Origin: Botryllus schlosseri
Lineage: Eukaryota
Direction: 5' to 3'
Assembly: GCA_051294905.1 (NCBI GenBank)
Contig: CM119372.1
Location: 28,212,001 to 28,276,000 of the forward strand
DNA: 64,000 nt
Positions within the stretch are counted from its first letter, which is position 1; every line of letters begins with the position of its first letter. Below the pieces are notes generated by a model. That model was not told where the DNA came from and did not search any database. It worked only from the letters and a program-made list of their open reading frames with translations. Position numbers and translations under genes: made by a program. Shown piece after piece: positions 1 through 63,902 of this stretch.

Positions 1-725
1 GTAATGGTTTTTTCGGTGTTGGTATAGAACAGACATGGGGTAATCGTGATTAGTAATCGTAATCGATTACGGCGATTACAGCATTTTCAAGTAATCGTAA
101 TCGCAATCGATTACATTCGAAAAAATTCCGAAGTAATCGTAATCGTAATCTACTACTTCCCATATCTAATCGATTTCTCTGTGAAAGAACGATTACTTTT
201 TATTTGTACAAGGATTATGACATAAACTGAACATTCGTGAACAAGGAAAGATGTTATACCAGGCTCGTGACAGCACAAACGTCTGGTTTTCAAACGCCAC
301 CGCTCATTATCATCATCATCATCATTGGTTCATTATTACGTCAGAAGCAGCCTATTAGCTTTGCGCGTCATTGTGTAAGAAGTATCCACAGTAAATAGAT
401 ATTCGATGTACCTACGTCGTCCATTAGTATGATTATAAGAACACCCGCCGTGCTGTATATCAGGTTATCAACGCGTTCCACACGCCTACCTTGCAGCAGT
501 ATAATTTATCTCCGCTCTGCCTATAGTTTAAAATAGTAACTTATGTGTTGATGTTTGGTTATGCTTATGCTTAGTTAAACGCAGTTTGACCGTTGCTGCT
601 TGGCGAGCAGTAGGCCTATCCAGTACGTACGTACACCGGACAAAGATTTGAAATTTTCTACTCGTCAAATAAAACATTGCGGTTTCCACAACGAAGCAGT
701 AAAAATCAACAGCTGGTGATATATA

Positions 726-2810
726 CACTGTAAAAAATCTGGTAGATATACTGGGAAATCTCTGTAAATTTTACAACGAATTACCGGTCGCAGCCAATAA
801 CTGTGCGTATAGCTTGTAATTTTATATTTTGATATGTAATATTACCTTAGTTTAGCTGTGAAGTCAAGTTACCAGAATTTCTTCGCAAAATTACTGACAG
901 TTACTCGTAACTGCAGTTTACCAGGCTATTGGGAAGATTGATTAGCTTCATAATCGCTGCAGCCAATATATACGTGGAAATGAATGTTACTGATATATCA
1001 TTCTCGTGGTGATTTGACTTGATTCAACCTCGTTCGCGAAACTGGGGTCTGTCGTACGGAAATTGTTGGCCCTAATAGCAATTTCAGTATAGTACATAGT
1101 AGGGTACAAGAAACAACTGACAATCGTAGCTAATGTGGTTACGCCATAGCCATTATATTATATTATAATGCTATATGGCTATACGGCCGTTCTCGCTGGT
1201 TACATTCGTTGTTACGGATAGGGCTGATAAGTTAGGAAATCAGTTAACGTTATATAATATTGTTCGGGAAACTAGAAATATCAGCACCGCATGCTCAGTT
1301 GACCATTTGCTAATGGCGGACAAGGCGACCTGTAATAGGTTACAATAGGTTACCGTTACGCGTTACTGGTTTTCTGAGATTCGTAGTAAACAGCCAACGC
1401 ACAACTGTGACATCACAAGCAGCGTCTCGTTTAGTAAGTACAGTAAGTAGTGAACAACACTTGGGATAAATATCTATTTATACGAAATTAGATGGAAAAG
1501 AAAGAAACTGTATGTAATGATAAATGTTTCTGCATGAAAGAGAAATAACCCAAGTCAAACATTATAACGTGGCCAGTAAATATTATTGGTGGTATGTCAG
1601 CGGATGAATACGACTTATTTCGAAATCCTTCGAGTATAGAAATTAATTTCTATACTTCGAGTGTCGTATCGTTGTCTGGCCATTATTGAGATTTGAGCAA
1701 AGGGTGGGGCGAAGCTTGTTGTACTTGAAGAAAGTGGACACGATCGTGGAAGATTCCTAGGAACGCTGAATGGGATACGCATCGTAAAAGGTACAGTACT
1801 ATATAGTATTTGCTACCGTGAATATCCGCGACTGTGCAATGTGCACACCACTTTGATTTCATTCTCCGCATTCTCTGTTCTATTTTGGGATATTAGTCGA
1901 CTTATATAGTGACCTGTGACACCACATACTCCGTCGCGGAGGAATTTAAACTGTTGGCTTGTTTATGTCATTTTCGGGCCATAGCATAGAGATGTTTTCA
2001 TCCACTGCTGGATTTGTTTGGCACACATGCCACCTCAAATGAGGAACCTTTTGCTTCAATACATTAGATAAAGTAAGTCATGAATCTCTGCTATATCATG
2101 TACAAGGCGGAGCCTTCATCACACAATGTACCAGTACAGGTACTTCAAAACATGTTACCGTATATTCTTGTTAGCCTATTTGTCTTAGTAGTCTTTATAA
2201 TGTCATGTCTAGGCTAGGAACTTTGCTTTATATAGCGACTTACTCATGAATTCTTTTTAGTGGAACTGCAAGATACTAGTTACACAGAAGGAATGAGGAA
2301 GAGAAAAAGAAACAATTGGAAGTTTGGCAGGTGGTGGAATTAATTCAAATTTTCTTGCGACCACTCGTGTTACTGCATGTCTCCTAAAGAAGAATTAGAC
2401 CTCCAGCAGCAATACCGTACTTTTCCATCGATTACCACTTCATCGTGATATCAAGAATGAATATACAGTTTGTTCCAATGGCGTTTTGGGAGTGTGAAGA
2501 AAATTTTGCGATATTTTAGCATCGTGTTGCTTTGCGATAGGTATGGATGTGCGTGAATTTACAAGCTGGTATGTAATCCTGATTTAGGTAGGTAGGTAGG
2601 CGGTCTCGGTCTCAAATGTACAGGAGAACATGTAGATTGGATATACCGGAGGAGACTGTAACATTACAGTCTGGGGTGTAAAGTGAGATTACCGGACGAG
2701 TGTAAGTTGAATTTGCATTGACTAACGGTAATGTTAGATTACCACGAAATGTCTGGCTACCGTGCTTCCAAACATTTCGCGGTAAATCGAGGTTTTTATT
2801 TTTTACAGTG
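726..2810. mobile_element. Non-autonomous CACTG-terminated (EnSpm/CMC-like) DNA transposon
   Basis: 13-bp TIR CACTGTAAAAAAT (726-738) / ATTTTTTACAGTG (2798-2810), flanked by TA on both sides; CACTG termini with a 2-bp TSD are typical of animal EnSpm/CACTA elements. Confidence 0.7.
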
Positions 2811-3192
2811 TATATCATAAGCGAGCCGTTTTGCCATTTCTCGTAACGGCAGCTTGCAAGACAATTGAAGGCTGAATTTTATGTTCGCTTCGTGTCTTAT
2901 TCTCATACGACTAACTTGAAACGGGCGCCTATCTTTATTTCATAATTCTTTATTCAACATTGGGACCTGCCGCCATGGTCATGGGCTTAAATATCATGTT
3001 AGCGTGGGTTGTAGCTGGAACCAGGACCAAAACAGCAATTCGTCTCCCAGTCCAGACGTTGGTCTTTGGCCCCTGTAGGGTGGTAATCTCAAGTTGAAGA
3101 CTGAATTTCGTCAAAAAATTTAGTGATTGCAATATTTTACTATTAATTTTTAATCCCCTCTCAGCCCGCGACAGTCAGATATACCTGTAGAG

Positions 3193-3478
3193 TTTATTTG
3201 TTTGAGGTAATCATGGTGTTTGTCGACTACCACATGACATTTACACCAGGCCGATTCTATGCATTTTTGATTCCGTATCTGCCGACTTGCAGCATGGCCC
3301 ACTTCTAAGCTTTTTGTAAGACACCGCTTACGTGGATGAGGCGGCGAGGAGGAGCCTTGATAAACCTCCAACACTTAGGTAGGAATACCGAAGTCGACCT
3401 CGTTCAGACTCGAACCCGCAACCCACTGGTGTTGCAGCCGTGGATTATACCACTGCGCTATCTCGCCACACAATTACC
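3193..3478 (-). mobile_element. tRNA-derived SINE, full length
   Basis: Minus strand reads GGCGAGATAGCGCAGTGG (A box) ... GGTTCGAGTC (B box), followed by a non-tRNA body; 11-bp TSD TACCTGTAGAG at 3182-3192 and 3479-3489; the body recurs at ~61561-61682. Confidence 0.8.
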
Positions 3479-3823
3479 TACCTGTAGAGCTGGGGCAACG
3501 TAATTCGTGACCTCCGGTTTGTTATATAATCGAAAGATATTGTAGTGGCTCAAACGTAACAGACTAAAAGAAAAACTTTCTTGACACGCATAAACAAATT
3601 GTCATGTCTTTATATCTGACTGCACGTCTAGCAACTCAAGTTGTAAATTACTATAGGGTCAGCGGCCACATTAACTACAATAGGACTTAAAAACATTTTC
3701 ATCATGGTAAAAAAGCATTCATTCAATGCAGCCGTTGAACTTAACAATCAAGTCAAATAATTCATTGGTTTGCTCGTCAGATAGCGTTGTAAAACGTGTT
3801 GTAACACCACCTGCACTTAATTA

Positions 3824-5089
3824 CAGAGGTGATCAGTAACGAAGTACTTCTACTTTTTGGAAGTACTCAAGTAGTTTTCCTCTACTTCTGGTACTTAGTC
3901 AAGTAGATCTGATTTTCTCTACTTCTACTTCGTAATATTTCGTGATCTAATAACTTACTTTTCGCTATTTTCAGTTTGTCAAGTAGAAGTAGTTTAATCT
4001 CCCAATACGAAAGATGACCTGAGGAATTTCGGGGCTGTTTTCACGGAGTACCAACATTTAATATTCATAAAAGTCAATTAAAGTCAAAAAAATTTGTTGC
4101 GCTTCGCGCACAGTAGTTATGGAGTGACACACATGTTTCCACGAAAGTATCAGTGAATATAATTTACGTACCGGTTCTTGGTTCCGCTCACATCGTATTC
4201 TCGGCCATATCAAATATTTCATCACAGTAAATATGGCCCACCATAACATTTGAAAATACCGTTTCGCAATCTAGCAATTACCTATCATATCGTAATCTAG
4301 CAGCCCATGACGTATCCTGCTAATCTGGAAATACGGCTTTTTTTTAACGTTACACCTGTTTTAGCAGATCACCTTTGAAGATTTATGGACAAAAGACATG
4401 AAATATATTTTTCGCTTTTTAGAAGTGGTATTTGTATTTCACTTCAATTCCAAGTATCATACTTTGAGTTCTAATTACTTTCAGTTCTTTTGTCTGCAGT
4501 ACATACATGTTGAAGCATGTGTAGTAATGCCTCTATTTTCCTAAAATAAACCTACACTCAAATATAAATTTTACGATACACAATATTTGTTATTAACGTA
4601 TACTGATCGCGTAAAGTGTTGAAACCGTATCCGACACAACTTCGTCTTATTGCTCTTCGCCTAAACTTGGGGCCTTATATATAGGGGTAGGGCGCCTTGC
4701 CATGATATCCTCTAAAACGGGGTCTTCTAGTAAACAGAGGGTTGGTATCGCATTTTCATATCAATACTATAATTTGCATCCCATGATGCGGAAGAATGCT
4801 TATTCTGTCTGAAATTGATACCTACTGGGATGCATCAATACGAATCAAGCTCTCTGCACCTTCAGCATAGCTCAATTTGCAGCTTTTGACAGTCCATGCG
4901 TACGAATTAAGACGGTTTTCAAAACTACTTACTTACTTGAGTAGATTTAAATTCAGTCAATTCTACTTCTACTTCAAGTAGTTTTAGGTTGCTTGTGGAA
5001 GAAGTACTTCTACTCGTACTTGAGTAGATTTTTCGTCGCTACTTCTACTTCTACTTGAGTAGCTTTCTTGACTACTTTGACCACCTCTG
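3824..5089. mobile_element. Non-autonomous hAT-type element with TACTTC/GAAGTA subterminal repeats (copy 1)
   Basis: TIR CAGAGGTG(A/G)TCA; exact TSD CTTAATTA at 3816-3823 and 5090-5097; inverted homologous copy at 48345-49598 and an interrupted partial copy at ~34840-37310. Confidence 0.88.
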
Positions 5090-5889
5090 CTTAATTAAGT
5101 CTGGTGATGAGCAGACTTAAATTTGAGTGCCGATCAAGACGCATTTGAATGTGAGCATACTTTTTGACGTGAGTTGAGTAACGAAATCGTTGCTGAGTAG
5201 AGAATCGCTACTCGAAACCAAAGGAATTGGTCTTCACCCTAAATTATAAACTCCAGATTCCAAGCAAAGCAAGTGAAATTTTTGAATATCAATTTTTTTG
5301 TTATAGATTGATTTTTTATTATTTTTTTTTTGGATTTTCCAACGTCAAGGGGAGCCGCAAGTTGGCTAGCTGAGAGCCACATGCGGCTCTCGAACCCGCG
5401 GTTGGCAATCATTATGATCTAGAGTGGATTTTCAAGTTAATTAGATCTCTCGAAAATACTCTATATCTTATGTTGGTTTACGAAATACTTTTTGAGTCCC
5501 CTTCGATCTCGCTCTCCACCCTATTGGAAAATTTGGGGTGCGGCAGTTATGGCCCTGGCAAGAATGCAAATCGTTGGGCGCGATAAATTGACCTCTATGA
5601 AAATGGGCAATGGATGCATTATGACGTAACGAACAAATGACGCATCTTTTTTAAAGGGAGTTTGTTGTCTCATTAGGCCTTTTCAGCGCAATCCATATAT
5701 TGTCTTCCAACATAGCTTCTAAGATGCCAAATACATGTAATCGTGAGTAATCGTGATTACTTTTCCAATGTAATCGTAATCGACTACTTCCTGATTTTGC
5801 TGTAATCGTAATCGTAATCGTAATCGCGTCATTCAGAAGTAATCGTAATCCCAATCGATTACATTCATGAAGTAATCACCCCATGTCTG

Positions 5890-6035
5890 GTATAGAACCA
5901 TCTCGGCAGACTAGGGCCGCGGGGGTTCTATACCAATACCGAGAAAACCATTACCGAGAATGCATGCGAGAATGGAACTTACGCGTAGAAGCGAGAAGAC
6001 TTGCATTATCGGTATTTACGCTGTACTCAACCCTA
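5890..6035. repeat. Palindromic repeat element interrupted by the 30-5889 insertion
   Basis: Window start GTAATGGTTTTTTCGGTGTTGGTATAGAAC is the near reverse complement of GTTCTATACCAATACCGAGAAAACCATTAC at ~5925-5954; the distal part (~5985-6033) matches ~61687-61732 in reverse complement. Confidence 0.65.
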
Positions 6036-6289
6036 ATGATTTGATATCTTGGTAAATTTGGGGTACCGGGCTTATCGAACGTCTTGAAATCTTAATTAAG
6101 GATTTCGCCATGTGTTGATTGATCAGAGAGAAGACATCACGGCGCCTCTATGACAATGGTGTTCTCAAATCCACATGGTCTTCGTCATTATCGACAAGAA
6201 ATGGCTTTGAAATGACATTCCTGTCGTTACAATACATTCATTACATGCGATTTATTCCTTGAATATTTCAATGACTTTTTTACCTCGGA

Positions 6290-7328: not shown

Positions 7329-10300
7329 TTATTGCAATTTAAACATCACTTTAGCCGCGGTCCCAGTTTTCAGTGATTTCAGCGCTTCCTCGTATTCCTT
7401 CAAATCAAACACTCTCACTCCCAATTTGTCCAGGTTCAATAGCTCCTTGCCCTTGAGATCTTTCAAAAGGTTCACCGCTTCCTCGAAGCAAAACGGGTTG
7501 ATAAACGACCCTGTGATGCGCAGTTCCTTCCAGTAGATCTGAAACGGCTCCACTTCAATTTTTTCACCTGCTGGACAACATCCAAACATCGATATGAAGG
7601 CCCCCCGCCGCGCCAACTCGATGGTCTGCGAAACGAAGTCAATGGTTCGTAAGTAGATGGATGTGCAAAATGTGCCGAAAACGTTACAGCGGGATCCTCA
7701 CTTTGCGCGCCGCCATATTATTGGCAAGTCTGATGAAGGTGGTACTAGTTCTGGAATATGCAGTCAAATGCCTACAGAAGTACAAGTATGGCCACGGGCC
7801 AGGATAAAAATTTGATGCGCAATTTTTTTATAAATACTGGCGTGACGTCACGAACTTCAATTCTGACGCATCGAAAACGAATGACGCCATAATGGGAAAG
7901 TCGTTTCTTCCCCTGTATTTTCATGAATTTGTTTATTGACAACAACATGCGCGGCGTGCACTGCACACGCATCGGCGTTTGGCGCACCACCCACTCATAT
8001 GAATGAACAATAATTACCATTCGTGACAGCTGGATAAAAAAACATATTCAGCAAATCATTCAGTTGCCTATGCTGAATACTATAACATATAAATATCGAC
8101 GAAACACATTGAGTGATGAAACCAAATCAACGCCCGGAAAGAAAATATCGATTATGGTAACGATTATGGTAAGTAGGCCTAAACAGATGTAGAAAAATGG
8201 TTGGAGAATATATAGTGAGGTGGTTCTCAACCTTTAATAACCGCGGAACCTCAAACTTTCTCAGAATCAGAAAAACGAAAATCTACCACATTAAACATCT
8301 CACTTCACATATTATACAATACATTACTATATATTACTGGTGCACAAAATGAACTGCGCATATCAACAGAGTGTTTAAAGAACAAAATCATTATAGTATG
8401 AATTTTACTGAATACGAATAAATTACATTAAATATCTATTGCAAATCAGCGTGGCTAATTTTGCTATTCTCTTTTATAGACCAGTTTGAAATGCGAGGCT
8501 TCGTTTTAGCAAGTGCCACCGTATTGTTCGGTCGAAACGCAGCAAACGCAACAGCGTGATACCTTGCCTAATTGCAAATGAGCTAATAAATATTGGAGAT
8601 AGAACAGTATTTCGGAAGGACGATCGAAACCCCACCTCGAAGAATGCCTGACACTGGTTCATGGAACGCCTGGGATTCCCGTGAACCACTGGTAGTGGTT
8701 TTAAAGAAAAGACCCGTCGAAGGACCAATACCAGAAACGGAATGATAAGAGCCATAGGAAATCGCCAAAATGGAAGACAGCGGAAAGATAGGGCTATTAC
8801 CACTAGTAGGCGGGTGGGAATATGACATGTTGGATCGATAAACCATATTCTGTAGTTTCGAGATCCTCAATTCCTCATATCTCATGAGTTCTTAAACTGC
8901 GGTCCGACAAGGTCAACGTTAAAGCTACAACTATAAAACTATATTTTTCTTGTCCATATTTAGACTTATCTCTCTATTCTTTTCAATGCTCACCGCCGGC
9001 CACACGGACGATGCACGATGCATACTCGGTCGACACTTGCTCTCCAACTGGCAATCAGACTGTGATTAGGGGAAAGTGATGACCTCTAATTTAGTCATCA
9101 GCTTACCAAATTTAGCGGCAAGGACAGCAACTGAGAATTGTTCGCTGTGCTTAATTTTTTTCGTAAACCAGATCACAACAGTGGGTCCACGCAACCACTC
9201 AAAAAATTTAGGGGCCATATCCCTCAAAAAAGTTTTAATACCCTGTTACTGTCTTTTCTATATACTTTCCACCGCATTTGTGTTGTGTGTCGCATTTTAC
9301 ATCTTATACGTGTGTCTTGAGTGGATGGAAGTATTATAATCACTGTTAAGTATTATGAAAATTTTGTCTGCCTCGTAATTTCATATGATGCATCTCGTCA
9401 TAAATATTCTGAAAAATGGCTATACTAGGAAATTAGTAGTTCCCCACTGGTGCCCCACAGCCATAGGTGTTCATAAGCGATTTCAATACATATAGGCCTA
9501 TATGCAGCCTACAAACCGTTTGTACCGCCTTGCAATTCCCGGTGCAATCATAGATTACATCGAAGCCGTCGGAGTCAGCATCTTTTCCTGACATGAGGAG
9601 ACCGAGCTCTTGGGGGTGGATGACATCATATCCGAGACCTAATGCTGGATGTTGCAAATAGAAGGAATTATACCGACTCGAATACACCGACGATAATGAC
9701 ATAATCAGATTTACCGGAACACGTCTTCCGTCTACCTTCGTGTGGCTCGCTGATAGTAACATTATTGTACCCGTTCACGTAAAACAAACACGCAAACATT
9801 GATCCGATTATACCAGCTCCTTGAATTAACACTTTCGACGATTTTAAAGGGAGCTTGTCCATCATCTTCCAGCCCCGTAAAACGCATGAATATGGCTCGC
9901 TTAGAGCACCGGCGTCAAGAGGTACTTCGGGAGGTAGCTGGTAAACCTATCACGCAGTAGACTAAATCATAATTACAACCTCGATTTCGTAAATGAAGAT
10001 TTACCTACCGAAGAATCGGGAACGACGCAGTATTCTGCCCATCCGCCGTTTCTTTTCACTCCAATCGCTTCATTCTTTTCGCAAAAATGTGGAGTTTGCC
10101 GACTAGCCCAACTACAAACCCCGCAGCATGCATTTGGATCTATAGATACATGGTCTCCCACCTATACAGAAATTGTCTGAGGCATTATCGCGGCCAATTA
10201 TTCAAACAGATGCACCTACATTGGGTTCGTGAAAAAAAAATTGAAAAGTAAATTTGGCTGGTTGGTTGGATGACGCGATGAGTAGGCTAGCCTAGTTTGC

Positions 10301-40021: not shown

Positions 40022-43000
40022 ATGGATTGTTTAAATCAAAGGAACGGTTTGCTCAAAGCTGCTGCTGGTAGAAAAGTCAATTTCAATGCAGGACCATCGA
40101 AATTACCCTTGCCGGTAAGTACCATACGTGGTCGAAGTCTTTCCAGGAATGTAATGTAATCATTGGTTCGTAGGTTCTCGAGAGAGTGCAAGTCGAAATG
40201 ATGAATTTTGACGGGAAAGGTCTCAGCGTGCTCGGTAAATTCGCTTAATTTCAAACGCAATGATTGTATCGCTTACCGTTTCTTTCGTTTAGAAATGAGT
40301 CACAGATCGACAGAATTTGCCGGAATACTAAACGACGCCAAAAACTCGCTGAGAACGCTACTGTGAGTACGCCCTGAGCTAAGTGAACGCGTCATCATCA
40401 TGCTGCAATCTCGCTGTTCTCGTTTCAAACAGTGATATCCCCGATAACTACAAAATCATCTTCCTACAAGGCGGTGGCTGTGGGCAATTCAGCGCAGTCG
40501 CGATGAATCTAATTGCGAGGAAACCAGGCAGAACCGCTGATTACATCGTCACCGGCACTTGGTCAGCGAAAGCTGCTAAAGAGGTGAGCTTTTCCTGATT
40601 AAGTAGGTTACCAAAAATGACACCGTGCATTTCTTCTGCAGGCCGAGAAGTACGGCAAAGCCCGAATCGTTCATCCAAAATCAGATACCTACACAAGTAT
40701 GCATTAAAATGTTATGTGTAATTGAGAGGGTTGTTAGAATGCTAAATGTCGGAATTTTTCAGAAATACCGCAATGCACTTTCAATGAAGACGCTTCGTAC
40801 GTATACTACTGCGCAAACGAAACAGTACACGGTGTCGAGTTCGTTGATGTACCGGACACGAAGGGAGTGCCTATTGTCACAGACATGTCTTCAAACATTT
40901 TGTCTCGACCCGTCGATGTGTCCAAGGTATACTGTAAACTTATAACAACTTTTCGACTATCCATCTCAATGTTGTGCAATGTCTCGTTGCAGTTCGGCGT
41001 GATATTCGCGGGCGCGCAGAAAAACATCGGGTGCGCTGGTGTCACTGTTGTTATCATACGCGAGGACTTGTTAGGCTTAGCAGTGCCGGAATGCCCGTCA
41101 GTTTTGAATTACAAAACGCAAGCCGACGCTAACTCCCTCTTCAATACGCCATCGTGCTTCGGGTAAATAACGTCCTTCAGACCATGTTTCCATCACGCGT
41201 TTTAACTCGCTGCGATGTTATTGACATCAGGATTTACATCATGGGCCTCGTGTTGAAATGGGCTTCATCTTTTGGAGGCGTCTCTCGGTTATACAAGCAG
41301 AATTGCATCAAAAGCGATTTGTTATATTCTGCCATCAACAACTCAAATGGATTTTACAGGTAAATGAAATTTGCAAGAGTGTCATTGCGTAGCTTCCCTA
41401 ATCCGATAGCAATGCGATGATGGCTTATCACGGCAAGTACTGGCGTCGTAATTAGGAATTACCAATCAACCCAACCACAATGTCTAGACGGGTTGTATTT
41501 ACCTCGCTTTGCATGATATATGGACCACCTATGTACTAACATTATTTCTGATCACGAAAGTGCCAAAGCTGGATGTGTCTTCGGATCATTCTCACTCGGC
41601 GAGTTTTCCGTTGTATATTGAACATATCGCTGGGTCTCTGCGCTTAGATGAGCGGAAGTTTTGAATTCAGTGCGTACTGCTTAGCCGTACAGTACTCAAT
41701 AACAGTTTCTGCAATAAATTATCTGCTGAGTCATCTTGACACCTGCTTACGAAATACGCAACTGCGTGCGTTTTATTCATGTACGAATAAGTAGTGAAGC
41801 ACATGTCGTCGGCCAGAGCTGAACGGATGTAATATTTCCAGTCATAAATCCAGAAATATTTCCATTATCCGAATCCGCTCACGGCAAATCCAAATCCTTG
41901 CTCACCTGTGCCATAGACGCCGGAAGTAATACGTATTATCAACACACGGACGGTTGTTATGCAGTCGGCCACGCTTCAAAGCGCTCCATTTCCGTACGGC
42001 ACTTTGTTTACCTCCATCCCGTGACGTATCGATGTTACCGGCGTCGCCGGTAGTTCAGTTCAGTTCAATGACTGACATCATTAACACCTCTGGTGCTACA
42101 TCGCGCCAGACCTAAAGGCTCGTTTTCACATTGTAGCTTCATTTTAGTCCGTTACGTCAAATGTTTACGCCGACTAAATATATTAGCAAATATTTCAAAC
42201 GAAAAGATTATAAGCGTATTTGTGACTCAATGCTATTGTCGGGAAGAGTAAGCTAAGACTTCTGCAGATCGTTCATTCAAAGTTTTTTTGAATGCTGAAG
42301 GCAAAGATTATTTTGACCATCACTGTAACACATTCCGCATTCGTGACGCCACGTTATTGCTGGTTTATGTAGGCTATGTCCCTAGTGCAGGGATGCGCGC
42401 GGATTTTAATTTTTACAAACCAATTTAAAAAATTTTGCCGTATTTGAATTTACTGTTATTGGACGTGGCATTTTTCGATAATTGGTAAATTTCCATGCTA
42501 CTTTCAAGTTATTCCGAGTAGTTCGATGATGAACTCGGGCTGGACTTTGCTATGACATTATTACCAGGTTTGGATTCGTAGCAGGGACCATATTTAGATT
42601 CAAAGTATTGAATTCGCCCGCCTTCTGCCCTGCTGCTAAAAATGTCATTCTGTATTCACCCTTGACCAAGAGCTTGGTAATTTTGACACGGGAAGTATTT
42701 TAACGTCTGTGACTGTTAAGCTAGGCGGGGAGATTAATCATATAATGCGTTGTTATAGTATTCGTGGTTTATAGACATCAGCGGTCATTTTACACCAGAC
42801 CGAGATTCTCCATGTTTGATGGGCGGTCGCATTTTGGCATTACCTCATTTTGCTGTGGTCTAGGGAAACGAGGAGCATCAATATACCTTGAACAATCAGC
42901 GTAGGGATTCTGGAGTCGATCGAGATGAAAATGCAACCCAATATTGTTGCAAGGTGCGGCGGTGGAACGTACCATTACGCTGTACTCGACACCGTCATTA

Positions 43001-49896: not shown

Positions 49897-50015
49897 CAGA
49901 CTTGGACAACTAGAAAATTTTCAGCTTTTCCAAATTAGATTAGAATTAGATTACTGGCATTTCATTCTAATTCAGTGAAATTAGACAACTAGAATTATCT
50001 AGTTGTCCAAGTCTG
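49897..50015. mobile_element. 119-bp MITE
   Basis: TIR CAGACTTGGACAACTAGA / TCTAGTTGTCCAAGTCTG; possible TSD CCGGCAAC/CCCACAAC (2 mismatches). Confidence 0.7.
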
Positions 50016-50868
50016 CCCACAACAGCTATATCCATCAATATCGCGATACTATACCTGTTTTTGCAAACACCCATGTACGTTGCTCTTTTTGATTATTTTG
50101 TGACTTGACAATAAGGGGCAAGGTTGGAATTTTGTATCGCCGTCAAGGGGTGCGTCTCCAAAAATTTATGAACTACTGGTCTTAATGCATGTGCATTGTA
50201 CATTGTACAATAACAATTCATTTAGCAACTCTGCGTTTGTAAGGCATCAAAGTAACACAGTCGCTGATTGTCATGTGAGTGCACGATAGCTGAAGTACGA
50301 ATGAAACAGAGGTGATAAATGAAGTTACAATTTAAATCGGGTGTGCTAGCTCACACCTTGACTGCGCAAGATCAACTTTCCAAACCCCACTGTCATCTGA
50401 CGGTCAGTCTGCGCAATGTATATGTGGCTGTGAAATTTCCCGTTTAAAAACGTCATCACTTTCGCTCTATCCGTATTTTAGCTCGATCACTAATGATCGC
50501 TGAACGGCCTATTTGGAGCCGGACGCTATTGTAATAATGATAATAACCGTTGGTATCGTATCACCATGGAAAACTGAATGGGATAGAACGGTAACTGCGT
50601 GGCCTGTCAATCATTTCCGGTCGGGTGATAGTGACCTCACGAGTTGAGCAAATTCGCGTCAGTCACAAAACCTTGGCATTGAGAAAGTTTCTGTTTTCTG
50701 TTAGTGATCTTTTGTGGCATTTGACCTTATAGTAGGTGTTTTGCAGATATGTATTGGTGATTCATTACAACTATCGAATATTGGAAATGCCTGGTTTTAA
50801 TACTAGTCGGAAAAATAGTAATTCAATACTGTCATGGGATCTGTCTTATTATTATTATAAATATTTTA

Positions 50869-51834
50869 ATGTATACTCATTTATACAGTATATCTATTGA
50901 AATTATGGCCTCGAAAGTCAGTGATGTTGTTGAGGAATGGTACGATATTCCTCCGGAAATTGTCCATGAACTGCTCTTCAACGACTTTGACGAAAGCAAG
51001 GACACCATATATGTTCCAAATATCATACAGCAACCAGTTGATCTTGCACCGCTGCTGCGCTCATTGGATTTCAAAGACCCGCCAGTACTCTCTGAAAAAG
51101 GTATTGAACTAGCTACGGGTTGGATTATCAGTATGAACTCCAACGGAAATCCTGATGATCTTGTGATGAGTTACAGTAAGGTTTGCGGTGATCCAATATC
51201 ATTCACAAAATCAAAGGACAGGCTTCTCTCTGCCAAATTTTTACTTGAGCTCATGGAAAGAATTATTGATAATGGAATAAAGGCACCGCAGCCTGAGTCA
51301 TTAGTGTCTGCCAGTATTTCTGGAAGGGAGAGTGATATTTTGGAATACATGGCTGGTTTTACTTTGAGAAAGGCGATTCGAAAATTCAATGACCAGTTAG
51401 ACCGATCTTTGCTTGAATATATTACAAATAACACTGGTAAGCCCTTTGGCAAGTTGATCCCCCTAATGGAGCGGAAGGCCAGGGCACTTATTTATCCAAG
51501 CGCTGAGCTGCTCTTTCTTCTTAGGAGAGTCTACAGGGAGTTTACAAGGGAATGCAGCAAATCCCCAAAGTTAATGAACTTTTCAATTTTACAGGACAGA
51601 GTTATCAAAAGTTCGTACGTATTCAACTTCACAAGCAGCATCAACAGAGCGACATGTTCTGATGTCCATTCCAAACTAGTTATAGATTATATCATTAGCT
51701 TATTTCTCAGAGTGTTGGGTCACTCCTTCACGAAGAAGCTAGTTAGTAAACTTCGAAAACGAAGAGAGTCGAATAAAGAAAGCCAGGGTACTCGTGGTGA
51801 TTTAAAGGGAAAACCAATATTGAGTAAAGAATGA
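50869..51834 (+). CDS. Transposon-borne 321-aa protein resembling the C-terminal region of P-element-type transposases
   Basis: By far the longest uninterrupted ORF in the window (alternative start MASKV at 50905); motif ILEYMAGFTLRK...LIYPSAEL resembles the Y(I/L)AG(Y/F)...L..PS signature; basic C-terminus KLRKRRES (NLS-like). Confidence 0.65.
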   Translation: MYTHLYSISIEIMASKVSDVVEEWYDIPPEIVHELLFNDFDESKDTIYVPNIIQQPVDLAPLLRSLDFKDPPVLSEKGIELATGWIISMNSNGNPDDLVMSYSKVCGDPISFTKSKDRLLSAKFLLELMERIIDNGIKAPQPESLVSASISGRESDILEYMAGFTLRKAIRKFNDQLDRSLLEYITNNTGKPFGKLIPLMERKARALIYPSAELLFLLRRVYREFTRECSKSPKLMNFSILQDRVIKSSYVFNFTSSINRATCSDVHSKLVIDYIISLFLRVLGHSFTKKLVSKLRKRRESNKESQGTRGDLKGKPILSKE

Positions 51835-52543
51835 TGAATTGTTTTGTTTGCAATTTCATAGTTATACATTAGCATGTATCTCGCCTTTTAATTACTTCCC
51901 ATCTAGTTTCTATGAATATGACCTAAGATAAGCACCAGTGCCATGGATGCTTTCTAATACGCTATGCATTATTTTTCAGGTTACACGTTCTGCCTGCACC
52001 GCTGACTCCCTCTCTCTCCGGTGCTAACATTTAACATCGCAGGTCATTAAGAAACGTTATTACAAGTATGACGGTTCAATGACGATGAGTATATCAGCTA
52101 ACCCTCTACCATACGAAACGGAGGGCACAATATTACTACATTCCGGCTATGTAGCCATAAGGCATTGTTAACTGCTATTATATCTCACTTCATGCAATCC
52201 TTTCAAGAAATAAACACATTTCAACAGTTATTTGTGGTATTGTGTATTGACCATTTGCTAGATGTTAGCCTGTTATGCAAAACTATCCGGGGCACAACTG
52301 GAAGTGACTGCTTGGTGCATGAAGACACCGTGGAGACCAAAGTGTAAACCCGGTTAAAATGAAAGATCTCCGGGTCGCCGTGACCCTTTCATAGCTAGCA
52401 AATGGGTTTGATGTCAGTGACAGTTTAAAGATATTCATCATCCATCGTTGCATGGTCCGTGGTCTTGCGGCTTGTCAATATTGCCCGTTTCCAACTGCAT
52501 CTGAAAAATAAATATATACGGCAGCACATGGTGTGGTTGTAAA

Positions 52544-53180
52544 TCAGTGAACTGGACAAGGGTTAGGATCGGAGCAAGCCATACGCAGGGCGGAACATAG
52601 GTCGTGGCTCGTGGGGATTACAGTTTTACTACTGGGCGCTGGCTCTTTCCTTGGCGGGAAAGAAAATGATGCAGACTTTTTAGGCAAATTGAGGCAAGGT
52701 GTCGCTCCCAACTTCAGCCGACGTTTTTCAGAAGCACCTGCCGCTATAATATCTTCTGGTCGGAAATGTCGATCACATATTTGGGTTCTTGAAAACACAG
52801 TAAATCGTCCATAAAAGAATCATAGCATGATGCCAGTAACAACAGAGCCTATCAGTCACAGGATTCCAGCTACCAGCTTTGATATCATGCCGGCAATATA
52901 GCCGTACACCTCCCATACCACCAATAGATATATGGTAGATCATATTCTGTTAAAACAATGTAAATACCGTAACTCACGATTCTCTATCGAGCTGACTGAT
53001 TATATTATCTCTGCTATCAGTAGAATCACGCATTGACAATATAAAACGACGTAGTTGCGATCGGTGCTGCTTTTCCTGTTCGTTCTTCGCGAGATCCACC
53101 CTGTAAATGATAAAGAGTGCTGAATTACTATTCTTCCGACTAGTATTACAACCAGGGACGGCACAACGGTTTGTAGGCAT
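52544..53180 (-). CDS. THAP-domain (C2CH zinc finger) protein, 2 exons
   Basis: Exon 53180-52978 (MPTNRCAVPGC...) is spliced via GTGAGT..TCAAG in phase 2 to the exon starting at 52787 (TQICDRHF...LKLGATPCLNLP), restoring C-x4-C...C-x2-HF and an AVPT-like box. The true 3' end is uncertain (possible further acceptor at 52501). Confidence 0.8.
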
Positions 53181-56058
53181 TTCCGATATTCAATTGTTGT
53201 ATTTAATCACCAATACAGATCTGCAAAAGATATAGATATACGGTCAAATGGAGCGCAGCAACGGTGCAAGATCAACTGGTTGTTGTATAATATTTGGAAC
53301 AGATATGGTGTCCTTGCTTTCGTCAAAGTCGTTGAAGAGCAGTTCATGGACAATTTCCGGAGGAATATCGTACCATTCCTCAACAACATCACTGACTTTC
53401 GAGGCCATAATTTCAATAGATATACTGTATAAATGAGTATACATTAAAATATTTATAATAATAATAAGACAGATCCCATGACAGTACTGAATTACTATTT
53501 TTCCGACTATAGTATTACAACCAGGCATTTCCAATATTCGATAGTTGTAATGAATCACCAATACATATCTGCAAAACACCTACTATAAGGTCAAATGTCA
53601 CAAAAGATCACTAACAGAAAACAGAAACTTTCTCAATGCTAAGGTTTTGTGACTAGCGCGAATTTGCTCAACTCGTGAGGTCACTATCACCCGACCGGAA
53701 ATGATTGACAGGCCACGCAGTTACCGTTCTATCCCATTCAGTTTTCCATGGTATCACATTACCTCAGCTGCAAAACTTAAAAGAACTATAACATCAGGGG
53801 TTCTTAACGAGGGGTACAGGTACGAAGCACCAGAGAAGAGGGTTAAAATGCAGTGTAAAATTATAGGCTGTCCATACGGCAGCGTTAACAAGTGCAGTGA
53901 CACAGGTAGAGTAGAAAAATACCAGATTATCTTTAACGTGGTGTAGAACTGTTATTGTTTCCTTTGTGGTCGCATGAAAGGTCGAGCTATCACACGTCAT
54001 CCACATCGCTATGACGTCAAAAGCAGTGACACTCGACTCGAAGCCTAATTCTCGATTAGCAATTGAATCACTCAGGTACTCCATTTCGCCCAACCCAACA
54101 TTGACGAAAATCTACGACAAAAACGCCCTAGTAGGTTAAATTGAATGACTAATTATTATTTGTGTGTTGTGAATTATGTTAAACTTGGCAAGGCCGTTTT
54201 AGTGTGAGCAATGCACATATGCAATTTGTGCATTCAACACGCAAGTTCTAAATACATTGAGTGTTTGTTTTATCACTACAATTGTATTTACTTTTGCCAA
54301 TCATTGTAGACAGGGGGTACCAGAAAATTTCACGGAAACTGAAGAAGTATTATAGCGCAAAACGGGGTGAGAAACACGAATATAGATATAATTGTGGTCG
54401 TTTTCTACTCAAGTAGATGAGGCAAATATATTGCGAAAGAAGACTCGGGATGAATCTGTCACACTCAAAGGCTACCAATAAGTGTAAGCAGAGCAATGAG
54501 CATTGAATAATGAACATGGTAAAATGACAACTTATAAACATAGGTTATCAATTACAGGTCATATTATCATTACAGGAACATTCAGTTTCGTACCACCGCA
54601 GCACAAGTGACGTGCTATATTCAACTATATATATTTAGAAATACCATGGATTTGCTAAAAAGTACAGAAACTATAAAAATAGATCTATCGCGGTTTACAT
54701 AACTATTAGACAACAATCATTCGGCAGATTTCGCCTTGAGGGCACGAGTGACAGACTGACAGTCAGTTGCGTCAGCCAAGAAATCAAAATATTGTTCAAC
54801 GTTACATCACCCTCTACGCCTCTATCCTTCAGAGACACTCGAAAGGATGCGATACGCGAGAGATCAATGACTTCTCTTATGACAACAAGCATAAGTTCAC
54901 GCTGCGATATATGATAGCTAATAGCCTTGTTTCAAGTTTTCTTTCGATTTAGTCCATACTACAGTGTTATATACCGATAGACATGCTATAACACAGTTCA
55001 TCTTTTTTCGAACAAGAAATTATATTATAGGTTTAGTCATTACTATGATGTTATTGTCGCAAGATTATATCCGGGTTACCGTTGCATCGCTGAGTCGAAG
55101 CTGGGAGAACGTTTTGCTAATAGTAACTATAAGCTTCGTCCTGTACAGATAATAGCTAGCTAGCAAAATCAACCCTTCTTAAGCGCACGGGTTTATTTAG
55201 AAGCGGGGCTTCGTCGACCATTGCAGCAATTTGCAAAAGAAGATAAGAAGCCGTCTTGGCTTGGTATTAACTTTAAACATAGGCAGCTATATCTACGGTT
55301 GATTATCAGTATATGGGAATCGCTGAACATTTACAGCAACCATCATTTCGGGCCCAAATCAAGGTTTTTTATTGCATCAATCATAACTATCACAGGTTTT
55401 TATTATAGACCAAGAGCATACCATCCGAAGTTCTTCATGATGGGGTCTTATCTTTATTGTACAAGTAGCCTACATATTCAAAGAGAAGGTATGAAGGTCG
55501 AGATGGAAATTACGAAATGCACTGATCATGAATACTATATGTATTTTCAGCTAAGTTATTGTAAGGAAGAGACCAATTTACTTTTAAAAAAGTATATATA
55601 ACCTGACAAATTAGAATAGTGAACATCGCGAGATATGGGCATGAGAAGATCGGAATCATACGAAAAAGCTCTTTACGCAATTTTCAATTCACGGACATAT
55701 ATGCAGTGCTAATGCAACTAATAGGTTCAATCATGGAATAATAAATCATTCTGGTATTGGATAGCATATGCCTATGTGACACTTAAAACGCGATATAAAA
55801 CTGCTGTAGTTGCGAGTCTGCGGGTAGAACTATCACAGTGGCATATTTCGCCCCTCATACCTCGAGTTTTACGACGTATTTAGAAAAAAGGCCAACCAAA
55901 GACCTTGTGATGGACGAATGTGAGGACGCGGATGAAAATATGAGAAGAAGGGTTTGAAAGAATTACAGGCGAAAGATCCGAAGGTCCGGGCATTCGGCCG
56001 TGGTGAAAGACACCGTACTTCGCCGTTTCGACATCCTTCTATATCTGTTCATTACATC

Positions 56059-58577: not shown

Positions 58578-60605
58578 CAGGGCTGTGGAGTCGGAGTCGG
58601 AGTCTAGGTAATTTTCGCTTGATGGAGTCGGAGTCGGAGTCGGAGTCGTGAAAACTATAATAGCTGGAGTCGGAGTCGGAGTCGGAGTCGAGAGGGAAAT
58701 ACTGACTGGAGTCGGAGTCGGAGTTTCTGAGAATGACCCTGACTTCGACTCCGACTCCGACTCCAACTTTTCTATCATGAAAACATTTGCTTTCAAAAAA
58801 TTTTCGAAATAATTTTTATGTACCACCAATCACTATTATTATTAACCATACAAATCAGGCACGGACAGCCCGTGGCACGCAGGCCAAATTTGGCTCACGA
58901 GAAGGTTAGGTGTGACCTGGGAGGTAATTCTCGAAATTATTTATGACATCAGGTACAATTGCAAGGTCAACCAAAATTTGATTAGCATGACCGCGAAATT
59001 TGATGATGACTAAAACAACAGTTCTGACGCATTGAGGTATACAAGGGCCAGCCACATTTATCCCAGATCTTCATATATGACCATAAAGTAGAATATTTCA
59101 TAGCAGATTTATTTGACTTGAAACTTTTCTCGGTGCTTCGCATGATCCATTGTCACTAGATTTCTTGCATTCAGTATTTGAGCCCCCTTCTAAAAATTAT
59201 AAATACTTATTATTCACAGAATTGAGTCTAACTATATTCCCAGTTAAGAGTAACGTGTCGTCCAACATGCGGCATCGCTTGCGTACTTGCAGCGAGATCG
59301 TCGACAAAACATTTGCACAAAATGATAGAGGCATGTTCGCTGATACCCTCGATTTTGCTATGTCTAAACGTCGAATAATCCTGTCCTGTCCAAATGAGCC
59401 CAGTGGTATACAGATGCGACCCCCAATGTATATTAGCAACATATTTATTGATATAATTCAGTCATTATCTTGCAAAGAAATTTCGCGCTTCGCGCGACCA
59501 GGGCCAACTTCCGCACTGCACAGTTGCATGACATATTGTTATCAATTTTAGAGCGTATTAATATAAGCCTTGTTTGCAATGTTACTTAATTCGGTTCGCT
59601 CCTATCGGACGACTAAAAAAAGGTTATCAACAAAACAGTTGCCCGCGCAATGGTTCCTAAATCTCATGTGTCCCTTGGCCGAAAACGTTGCACACCCCGG
59701 ATATAGACAAAATTAGGCATTACTTGCAAATTACAACTCAGTTGCAGAGGGGAAGAAAATCGCAATATGCATTTTCGCGATGCAGTCAAAATTGATGCCA
59801 TTGATACTGTGACATAGCAAATGCATCGGCTGTTTTTTTAAAATTGTCAAAATTATGTAAAGATGACCAAACGATGCTTCCCACTTTACAGAATTAAAAA
59901 TATTTGCAGTGTAGCTTAGCTGTTTGGTTCGAACATATGATTAAGTAAGACTGCAAGTCCCAATCCTTGAATACTTGATTAAGTACATGTACACATAGGC
60001 TATGGGTCTTTGACTATTAAACTAAATTCCCTTTATGACCAATGTCTGTTAGTAGTAAGAGTGTGTGTGCTTGTAATCGGGATAGTGGGCAATGAAAAAA
60101 TTAGTTAGCACAATCTCTTTATTAGTTGCTGACTCATACACAAGAGCTACACTTGTATTTTTATCTACATTTTTATTATTCAGGATTGGATATCTGCCAT
60201 ATTTGAATGATTCATACATTTCAGGATATTAGAGAGTCCATGTTATAAAAATTCGAAAAAGGAAGGATATTTAGCAAATGTTATGCTAATTGCATAGATA
60301 GTGGATAATTCGCGCTGTGTCACAATGAAACAATTTAGCATGCCACCGTTAATCATATGTTTGCATATGTTTAATGGTTGTATGATAGTCATTCAACCGA
60401 CAATGTCGCATATAATTTTCGAAGTAAATTGGTAATAATGCCGGAGTCGGAGTCGGTACGTTTAAAGACCCAAGAGTCGGAGTCGGAGTCGGTACGTTTA
60501 AAGACTCAGGAGTCGGAGTCGGAGTCGGAGTCGGTATATTGAAAATGTGTGGAGTCGGAGTCGGAGCCGGAGTCGGTGGTAAAATTTACCGACTCCACAG
60601 CCCTG
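58578..60605. mobile_element. hAT-type element with GGAGTC arrays (copy 2)
   Basis: Same TIRs as, and colinear with, 26623-28649; TSD degenerate (GTTGAAAC/GTTAAGAG). Confidence 0.88.
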
Positions 60606-60654
60606 GTTAAGAGGCTGGTGCGGAGCAGCGAAACCACGTTTGATCGTAGCGCAA

Positions 60655-60920
60655 CAGCGTTTGATGTTTTACAGTGGTTAGTTAATGCAAAGCTACTTGA
60701 TTCGACAACATATCTATGCTCGTGTCTGAAACTTTATCTGACCATTGGTGTTTCAATTGCGAGCTGTGTGAGGAGCTTCTCAAAGCTCAAACTGATTAAG
60801 TCTTATTTACGTTCTAACATGAATGATTATCGACTATCAGATCTATCCATTCTGTCTATAGAAAGAGACTATACGTTCAAAAACTTGAATTTGAGGATAT
60901 TATCGCTGATTTTGCTTTGA
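60655..60920 (+). pseudogene. hAT transposase C-terminal dimerization-domain fragment
   Basis: LKLYLTIGVSIASCVRSFSKLKLIKSYLRSNMNDYRLSDLSILSIER matches the hATC consensus (ERSFS.LK.IK..LRS.M...RL..L..LSIE); a second copy at ~62347-63960 is split by two insertions. Confidence 0.85.
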
Positions 60921-61682: not shown

Positions 61683-62499
61683 CATTAAGGTTGAGTACAT
61701 CGTAAATGCCGATAATGCAAGTCTTCTCGCTTCGACGAACTTAAGCGTAAGCTCCTCTCTCGCACGCTGCGCATACACGTATATAATAACATACAGTCAC
61801 CGAAATCTGACGTAGTAAGCAAGTAGTGGGAAATCTCGGCATACTGAGGCCGCGAGCCACATTATATCATGTAAGACGGAAAACTGTCCGCGGGACGGAC
61901 AAAATCCTTTCGCGGGCCGTATGTTGCCAGCCCCTGTCATAAAGGATGATGCCGTGTAGTGTTGTGACCCGCAATCTCACATGAACGTTGTATAATATGG
62001 GTTGTTTTGTTTGGAATACATTCATGAACTCAGTACTAAATTCAATGTGACCAAAGATCTCTAGCTCTACCCAGTGGCGTAGCAGCCACTTGGCGGTTCT
62101 GGCTCTGCGCCAGGGGCGGCAGGCTCCAAGGGGGCGGCAAAATGAGGCTAACACAATGTACACAGCTGGTTAAAGCAGCGTATTTGGTAGTCCTATAGCT
62201 GGCGTCCCGTGAGCTAAAATTTAATCAAACTGGTCTTAAACGAAAGCTAGTGTCACGCTAATTCCGAAAACACGAATTAATATGTTAACATGACAATGGA
62301 ACCATTCCGAAATAGCCATCAAGGGCGCGTGTTCCTAACAATGGTTGGTTAGTTAATGCAAAGCTACTGCATGCGACACCTTATATATACTCGTGTCTGG
62401 AACTTCATCTGACCATTGGTGTTTCAATTGAGGGCTGTGCGAGGAGCTTCTCAAAGCTCAAACTGATTAAGTCTTATTTACGTTCTACCATGAATGATG

Positions 62500-62966
62500 T
62501 AGTGCGGAGCATGGACCGGAGCCGGATTGGATATCCGGCCGGATTTTTACAATTTTGGCCGGACCGGATTGGAGCCGGATCAGTACTTTTTCTCTTACGG
62601 CCGGAGCCGGATCGGAGCCGGATCACTACTTTTTTGATCCGGCCAGAATTTTTATGGATAAGCATGACTTTTATATGGATAAGCATGACTTTTATATGGA
62701 TAAGCATGACTTTTATAACTATATAACTACCAACCAACCACACGTAAGTAACCTCCAAGCCAGTGTGAACATAAACGAGGCATATTTATCAATTCACGGA
62801 ACCTCCGTACCGAGTAGGACCGGATTTCTGGCCGGACTTTTTCATTTTTGGCCGGATCGGATTGGAGCCGGATCAGTACTTTTTCGGATACGGCCGGAGC
62901 CGGACCAGAGAATTGAACAACCGGATCGGAGCCGGACCAGAGAATTTGTCGATCCGCCCCGCACTA
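62500..62966. mobile_element. MITE with CCGGA(T/G/C) arrays and an internal 3x21-bp tandem repeat
   Basis: TIR TAGTGCGG / CCGCACTA; exact TSD GAATGATG at 62492-62499 and 62967-62974; the TATGGATAAGCATGACTTTTA unit occurs three times at ~62653-62715. Confidence 0.85.
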
Positions 62967-62998
62967 GAATGATGATCGGCTATCATCTCTATCGATAG

Positions 62999-63902
62999 CA
63001 GTGGTTCTCAACCTTTTTGTCTTCGCGGAACACTTTGACCGCTACAGACCCCCGTGGACACCCTCAATTATCGTGCAACCGCCAACTGTCTCGTGCAAAC
63101 ATTGATTTTAGGTTAGTAATAAACAGCCAGAAAATGAATTTTATTCAAAATAACATCACACTATATATGTCGAAATTGGGTAGACTTTTAATATTTCGAA
63201 ACGAATTCTCCACCTGTATTTATTGTCTTGAAAATTCCCGTCTTTGATTGGATATGAACGAGTGCCGAAAGTCCATTTCCACAAAGATAGATTGGTGGCG
63301 AATGTAATATCAACGCGTAACGCTTCTGCATGACGACAGCTTTTGGTGTGTGTTTGTAATGAACATATCATGTCCATTGTCCACGCAGCCTATATAGTCA
63401 ATTCTATCTAGCATCTCATCTTGAAGGCATTTAGTGGTTATATCACAGAAGAAAATGGACTTCGTGGCGGCGCGGTTTCAATTCCTTCATTGGGACAGAT
63501 CAGGAAACAAGTTCAGGAACTTCTATTTCAAACGAATGTTTACAAATTTGCTGCGACTGACAACTGCAAATCCAAATTGCTATCTTCAACATTTAATTTT
63601 TCAGAAACCTTAACAAAACATTTATAAACAGCAATATATGTTTACATCGGCATGCCATTGGTAAGTTGACAATAAAATGAGTTTGCACAGTCGGATATTT
63701 CATCTCAGACGAACATTTTAATGACGTGAGTCCTAAAGTTTTAGTAATTATGAAGCGAAGCGAAAACTGTCCCATGCTTTTCCTAATTAAAAAATGTAAA
63801 GTAAGTTACTTATGACTTTACAATGACCAGAGGCTTCGTAGACCCCCTGAAAATGCTTCGTGGCCCACCAGGGGTCCGCGGATCCCCGGTTGAGAACCAC
63901 TG
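62999..63902. mobile_element. hAT-type non-autonomous element
   Basis: Perfect 15-bp TIR CAGTGGTTCTCAACC / GGTTGAGAACCACTG; TSD ATCGATAG/GTCTATAG; removing it restores continuity with the hATC fragment seen at 60850-60915. Confidence 0.82.

Follow-up and report, generated by a model that had tools for sequence, protein, structure and literature searches.

A Botryllus schlosseri P-superfamily transposon with convergent genes for a transposase core and a protein resembling the P transposase C-terminal domain

We analyzed a 64,000-nt stretch of the Botryllus schlosseri genome (assembly GCA_051294905.1, CM119372.1; denoted the window, whose positions serve as element coordinates). At 50565-53750 it contains a 3,186-bp element with CATG at both ends, which is a non-autonomous deletion derivative of a two-gene P-superfamily transposon. 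In the longer relatives of this element one gene encodes a transposase core without a C-terminal domain (CTD), and a second gene, converging on the first from the other end, encodes a protein that matches the CTD of the Drosophila P transposase in sequence profile and predicted fold. The two-gene convergent layout is real and old, and the CTD open reading frame (ORF) is under purifying selection. We consider it probable, at roughly 70%, that the CTD protein is an obligatory second subunit of a two-subunit transposase and acts in trans.

The full-length relative considered here, L068 (C184), is a 6,608-bp copy that has its own matching target-site duplication (TSD) and 3,366 bases more than the window copy. 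The features of the window copy, which is bounded by terminal inverted repeats (TIRs), are as follows; dN/dS denotes the ratio of nonsynonymous to synonymous substitution.

50558..50564, left TSD GTATCAC, 7 bp, read in the sequence.
50565..51062, + strand, left TIR, ~498 bp, holding a decayed THAP start, CTD-gene codons 1-54 and a putative promoter.
50905..51834, + strand, CTD gene, 309 aa (321 aa from the ATG at 50869), recognized by homology, fold model and dN/dS.
51101..51979 (L068 655-1531), + strand, alternative GT-AG intron, seen as an RNA joint in 6 reads of run X24, 2 reads of run X22 and one contig of run X3.
52544..53180, - strand, truncated transposase gene, 5' part: THAP exon 1 at 53180-52978, GT-AG intron at 52977-52788, exon 2 from 52787.
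52631..52632, deletion junction, at which the window copy lacks L068 positions 2107-5472 (3,366 bp: catalytic core and transposase 3' end).
53244..53408, - strand, copy of the 54-codon CTD-gene start, located within the right TIR and upstream of the THAP ATG.
53251..53750, - strand, right TIR, ~500 bp.
53751..53757, right TSD GTATCAC, 7 bp, read in the sequence.

In L068 the transposase gene lies on the - strand and joins THAP, helix-turn-helix (HTH), RNase H, guanosine triphosphate (GTP)-binding and catalytic-Glu exons in one spliced gene. RNA reads and contigs showed its introns to be spliced, with nine CT..AC joints among those listed, that of the THAP intron included. The core exon matches PF21787 (RNase H N-part) at E 1.6e-10; the matches of the HTH exon to PF12017 (E 0.004) and of a single GTP-binding exon to PF21788 (E 0.19) are weak. 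The motifs LDEM, ADG, DPSH and QDxxE can be read in L068 and form an RNase H-like DDE/DxxH set that is deleted from the window copy. THAP exons 1 and 2 align with the Styela protein P0058 (E 7e-12 and 1e-5), which itself passes the THAP cut-off. The close relatives P0052 and P0055 pass the PF21788 cut-off, and the PF21788-annotated P0051 aligns across the GTP-binding exons of L068, so that a GTP-binding insertion is present by sequence and the binding itself is predicted. Judged by its THAP domain, DDE/DxxH motifs, GTP-binding insertion, TIRs and 7-bp TSD, the full-length family belongs to the P superfamily.

The transposase stop comes ~60-70 residues after the catalytic Glu, and the core chain, which ends in a conserved basic segment, contains no CTD; the CTD lies on the opposite strand and not in the same polypeptide. 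The same early stop just past QDxxE was found in L068 and in five of six distant loci that we read in DNA (L062-L066; L067 was not read to its end). P0051, P0055 and P0061 end 64-68 residues past the catalytic Glu, and the Ciona protein P0052 ends likewise.

The + strand frame of the window copy is open from 50761 to 51834, and the starts of homologues line up with the ATG at 50905 rather than with that at 50869. The predicted protein consists of an acidic N-terminus (residues 1-65; 14 D/E, 5 K/R), a helical domain without an assigned fold (~42-135), a P-CTD fold (136-286) and a conserved basic tail, with 12 K/R and 4 D/E in residues 271-309. A search of 1.84 billion representatives yielded 39 homologues at E <= 0.001; the full-length ones are mostly 280-330 aa long and unnamed, and the ten that were looked up came from Logan and ENA. 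A profile built from 25 homologues matches chain 6p5a_B, the Drosophila P CTD, at E 1.8e-5, the next match being at 0.059. Residues 136-286 of an AlphaFold (AF2) model of the ORF (mean predicted local distance difference test score, pLDDT, 81) align to 6p5a_B residues 617-734 with a root-mean-square deviation of 2.5 Å over 115 residues and a Z of 10.9, a value that, by the tool's own note, helical domains can reach by chance; the next chain has Z 7.2. Profile and fold together bear out the preliminary description of this DNA, which had seen here an uninterrupted, transposase-C-terminus-like ORF of 321 aa reading inward from the left, on the strand opposite to the THAP part. A Pfam scan of the window ORF alone gave no family at the cut-off, an ESM Atlas search gave no usable match, and a homologue search with the ORF alignment gave just two matches, both unnamed, among 7,588 candidates. 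The fold search with the N-terminal domain (42-136) reached a best Z of 6.6 without a clear match, and the ORF profile showed no similarity to the core.

In two distant relatives of the second protein, P0037 and P0038, the N-terminus holds a C2H2-like zinc finger (Pfam E 0.001-0.002, short of the cut-off); their genes may be the partners of further CTD-less P families, for example P0061.

The preliminary description had proposed a two-gene P-type architecture and asked whether the convergent layout is conserved, which it is. We took 31 distant ORF homologues (26-35% identity) from 134 rows (128 scored of 261 candidates) and compared them with transposase-exon rows (66 of 68 and 59 of 115), after removal of duplicated fragments and of the most distant class with the weakest matches. 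A convergent transposase exon was found within 25 kb of 24 of the 31 and within 6 kb of 20; the share of the genome that lies as close to such an exon is ~0.7%. The two genes converge in all six distant loci read in DNA, and for four of them the stretch examined includes the two TIRs (229-406 bp) together with 7-bp TSDs. The second proteins of these loci are 23-63% identical to one another, and the layout as such is common to families that are only 23-46% identical. In a full element each gene starts in or beside a TIR. L069, from a far more distant, intron-poor P family, had been picked as a single-chain control and was found to be split too: a CTD-less core faces a CTD-like ORF (hidden Markov model E 1.2e-8; hhalign 93%), with ORFs at 351-1556 (+) and 1738-2490 (-), which suggests that the architecture is deep and wide. 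A metagenome scan with the core exon returned four weak loci, none of which matched either profile.

To assess selection, we used the 27 copies that cover >600 nt of the ORF; 26 fall into three subfamilies (14, 9 and 3 copies), and one outlier was left out. The dN/dS values, calculated by Nei-Gojobori without transition correction on subfamily majority rows, were 0.10, 0.13 and 0.13 between the rows, far from the neutral value considered in the preliminary description, and 0.46, 0.62 and 0.25 for copies against their own majority row. All three thirds of the CTD protein are constrained (dN/dS 0.06-0.21).

The number of RNA reads placed on L068 was 361 from a 6% share of run X24 and 3,815 from a 3% share of run X22, most of the latter falling in a shared-repeat peak; they come from the family and not provably from the window copy. 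ORF reads and transposase joints in X22 lie on opposite strands, as convergent genes predict, and so fit convergent transcription; both strands are transcribed, at a low level. Once the alternative + strand intron is spliced out, the CTD gene lacks codons 66-309, and what remains would encode a mostly acidic peptide of 73 aa. The spliced joint was absent as DNA from the 69 loci checked, a subset of the copies, and a pattern search with up to 6 mismatches detected its acceptor in the youngest subfamily alone. The idea that this splice would serve as an on/off switch therefore stays speculative; it is possibly a switch or possibly a cryptic splice. A strong RNA peak between the genes (L068 1590-2270, window ~52020-52630) was set aside as a sign of element expression because it covers both strands and has many loose ends; it is probably a piece shared with an abundant repeat.

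The window copy itself was derived from such an element by internal deletion. Since its THAP exons are, in L068, the 5' exons of a spliced gene that bears the core, there is no stand-alone THAP gene, and a catalytic core does exist in the family. The preliminary description was therefore right that a spliced THAP gene reads inward from the right (a contig of run X3 confirmed the splicing) and that the window copy has no core (tblastn with four transposase proteins matched only THAP exons across the whole window), but it mistook the cut-off 5' end of a transposase gene for a gene of its own; the longer copies for which it had called do include the DDE domain. Its alternative of a recently rearranged non-autonomous family holds as far as non-autonomy by deletion is concerned, but the convergent layout is old and no recent rearrangement. 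THAP exon 2, which by itself matches PF05485 with E 8e-4, short of the curated cut-off, runs across the deletion junction to a stop at 52544, and the predicted KP-like product has 148 aa. A genome search with the element gave 144 matches from 40 scored of 322 candidates. Within this sample, close copies break at element position 2067/2068, where the window copy alone is continuous; the breakpoints of other short copies differ, and several lack THAP exon 2. A KP-type repressor element is a single deletion form that encodes a THAP repressor and is amplified to many copies, and here the junction was present in one copy among the 40 candidates scored. The window copy cannot cut and depends on relatives; it may express the CTD protein and the 148-aa THAP fragment.

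The ends of the element agree with the preliminary description: the 7-bp TSD GTATCAC, the CATG termini and the ~500-bp TIRs can all be read in the sequence. The left TIR of 498 bp and the right TIR of 500 bp match at 488 positions. Matching 7-bp TSDs flank all 11 elements for which both ends were available, a TIR and TSD structure typical of the P superfamily (7-8 bp), and those of the window copy are therefore not due to chance. The TSDs of the close family fit RTNNNAY, and the element ends read YATRG. Only 57-183 terminal bases are common to the window TIR and to older subfamilies. Inside the left TIR, at ~50788-50840, lies a decayed copy of the THAP start. The TIR also takes in codons 1-54 of the long ORF, which hence occur at both element ends. 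An RNA-type contig (X3 record 7) covers L068 5918-6318, which includes part of the right-TIR copy of these codons, and splices into THAP exon 2; the copy, placed there by TIR expansion, possibly acts as an upstream ORF of the transposase message. In L065 the 406-bp TIRs (743-1136 and 5856-6248) have a 76-codon ATG ORF at both ends; these TIRs overlap the THAP start.

How might two such proteins work together? The CTD of the Drosophila P transposase hangs on a flexible, disordered linker and contacts both transposon and target DNA (available part of PMC7776569), a geometry in which cutting the linker would be tolerated. We propose that the CTD protein would dock on the core dimer in trans and would supply there the transposon and target DNA contacts that the linked CTD makes in Drosophila P. 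The window copy would then be moved in trans by full-length relatives and could still supply the CTD protein, and its 148-aa THAP product might, more speculatively, act as a KP-like repressor. A complex prediction made without alignments for the window ORF and P0051, a stand-in core that is ~64-69% identical to the window family in the 3' exons, scored 0.00 and counts neither for nor against such docking.

Several observations weigh against a two-subunit transposase. L068 has, relative to RNA reads, a 1-nt frameshift in each gene (places 1225 and 2796), so that no fully intact copy of the L068/window family is known here. Stops or frameshifts interrupt 15 of the 22 near-full ORF copies, and seven of the 22, one of them with a 4-nt gap, are free of stops over the first 300 codons; the intactness of the long ORF stressed in the preliminary description is thus not general. 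Decay of single copies is expected, because selection acts only on transposing masters. Among the 31 distant homologues, six lack a transposase exon within 25 kb, and in one case the exon lies on the same strand. Linkage of the two genes is demonstrated in this genome alone; elsewhere the two protein types are known separately. Foldseek places 6p5a_B second at E 0.16 (prob 0.87), with nothing at E <= 0.001; given this value and a Z within the chance range, the CTD assignment rests on the agreement of sequence and fold. The read depth over the ORF is low (0.15-1.2 in X22), and none of the listed RNA records spans the whole unspliced ORF.

Alternatively, the CTD-derived gene may be a dispensable accessory or regulator, active in target choice, end protection or repression, next to a core that transposes alone, as with helper genes of other superfamilies. 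The ~135 extra N-terminal residues without an assigned fold and the splice form that removes the CTD are in line with this, selection and linkage fit any useful gene, and the accessory genes of Kolobok elements vary by lineage, with none in some (available part of PMC9587614). Although a dispensable role is the main rival reading, we regard it as unlikely: the second gene codes for just the domain that is missing from the core in every family read, the distant L069 included, and the Drosophila CTD makes contacts with transposon and target DNA (PMC7776569, in the part cited above). Much less probable still is a dedicated two-gene repressor or accessory element that combines a stand-alone THAP gene with a CTD-like gene and no core. 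It would account for the 148-aa THAP-only product that the window copy would yield and for the CTD gene end kept in all deletion copies, and short THAP-bearing P products do repress in Drosophila (PMC7776569, same part); it is, however, already largely refuted by the junction that is continuous in a single copy of the 40 candidates scored, and the differing breakpoints, the loss of THAP exon 2 from several short copies and the membership of the THAP exons in a full transposase gene speak against it as well.

Because both genes together make up one complete P transposase domain set, one might also suppose that trans-splicing or protein ligation still links the CTD to the core, or that the layout goes back to one internal inversion of an ordinary P gene. 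This is equally improbable. The ORF starts from an ATG of its own, its N-terminal half of ~135 aa is conserved, proteins of 280-330 aa homologous to it turn up repeatedly in Logan and ENA, and the layout extends to the divergent families described above; no strand-switch joint occurs among the 15 joints listed of 19, and no fused form was found among 3,416 longer-protein candidates, which is weak evidence. The case named in the preliminary description as its refutation, that of a single copy explained by one inversion, with neutral dN/dS and no expression, fails on all four counts. An obligatory CTD subunit acting in trans is therefore the reading that we prefer.

The element shares with the Drosophila P transposase (6P5A/6PE2) and THAP9 the THAP, HTH, RNase H with GTP-binding insertion and helical CTD parts (PMC7776569, in part), and with Drosophila P also the CATG ends, the sequence and fold match of the CTD and the Pfam core matches. 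However, Drosophila P and THAP9 are each one polypeptide, whereas here the CTD comes from a gene of its own, which is convergent and encodes an additional N-terminal half, and the TSD is 7 bp instead of the usual 8 bp of P (available part of PMC4168063). Galileo, according to the same part of that source, likewise has long, unstable TIRs that recruit ORF pieces and 7-bp TSDs whose consensus is GTANTAC; its nearly complete copy is one 905-aa ORF, and no second gene is described there. The transposase here has many introns, unlike Galileo's single ORF, and forms no single ORF of ~900 aa. The likeness to Galileo is one of TIR length and TSD only. The closest named transposases are P-like proteins of Ciona, Styela and Phallusia, with 44-54% identity over the RNase H exon, and two Ciona proteins stop where the transposase here does, without a CTD. 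Kimbacher et al. (2009) reportedly described the Ciona intestinalis P elements Pcin1-3 and a many-exon P transposase in Ciona.

Second genes occur in other superfamilies. Kolobok elements target TTAA, in contrast to the 7-bp TSDs found here. Kolobok Kol0 is, like the present family, an animal DNA transposon with a second protein, KolX, which is however unrelated, having a P2X7 cytoplasmic-ballast fold and seven conserved Cys (available part of PMC9587614); the second protein here is helical, matches the P CTD and lacks the conserved Cys set. The maize element MuDR also has two convergent genes (mudrA and mudrB), each starting from within a long TIR, and its deletion derivatives keep the second gene; it belongs to the Mutator superfamily, though, and MURB is described as a helper protein rather than a split-off transposase domain (available part of bioRxiv 10.1101/2020.01.09.900282). 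Our literature searches, with Repbase and Kimbacher 2009 outside their coverage, turned up no account of P elements with a second gene. The two-gene split of the P transposase may be a novel variant within the known P superfamily, and a prior description is possible.

Other features of the window include a small inverted repeat resembling a miniature inverted-repeat transposable element at 49897-50015 (23-nt arms, 73 nt apart), 550 bp to the left of the element, and hAT transposase C-terminal remnants at 60543-60920 (PF05699, E 2.6e-9) and 62316-62726, with tandem repeats near 62500-63000. Two host gene exons were recognized: a class-V aminotransferase exon at 40738-41166 (+; PF00266, E 1.3e-12), which we take to be phosphoserine aminotransferase-like, and a zinc-binding dehydrogenase exon at 7329-7697 (-), a weak match (E 0.006).

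A tentative and rather doubtful extension of these findings is a broad, old lineage of invertebrate P elements with an unpublished layout, in which the CTD would be an obligatory subunit and a CTD-deleting splice would gate transposition, mirroring the way in which Drosophila P is controlled by a germline intron. Taken alone, the window copy is a commonplace deletion derivative, and what is of interest is the architecture of its family. P transposases have been described as single chains, and the split found here in nature shows that core and CTD can be separated. It makes the role of the CTD in end unwinding and target capture directly testable by complementation and provides P-type transposition tools with a two-component switch. 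The split would also account for 'P transposase-like' proteins that lack a CTD and for the unnamed helical proteins of 300 aa in invertebrate databases, and the annotation of P elements should look for a second gene.

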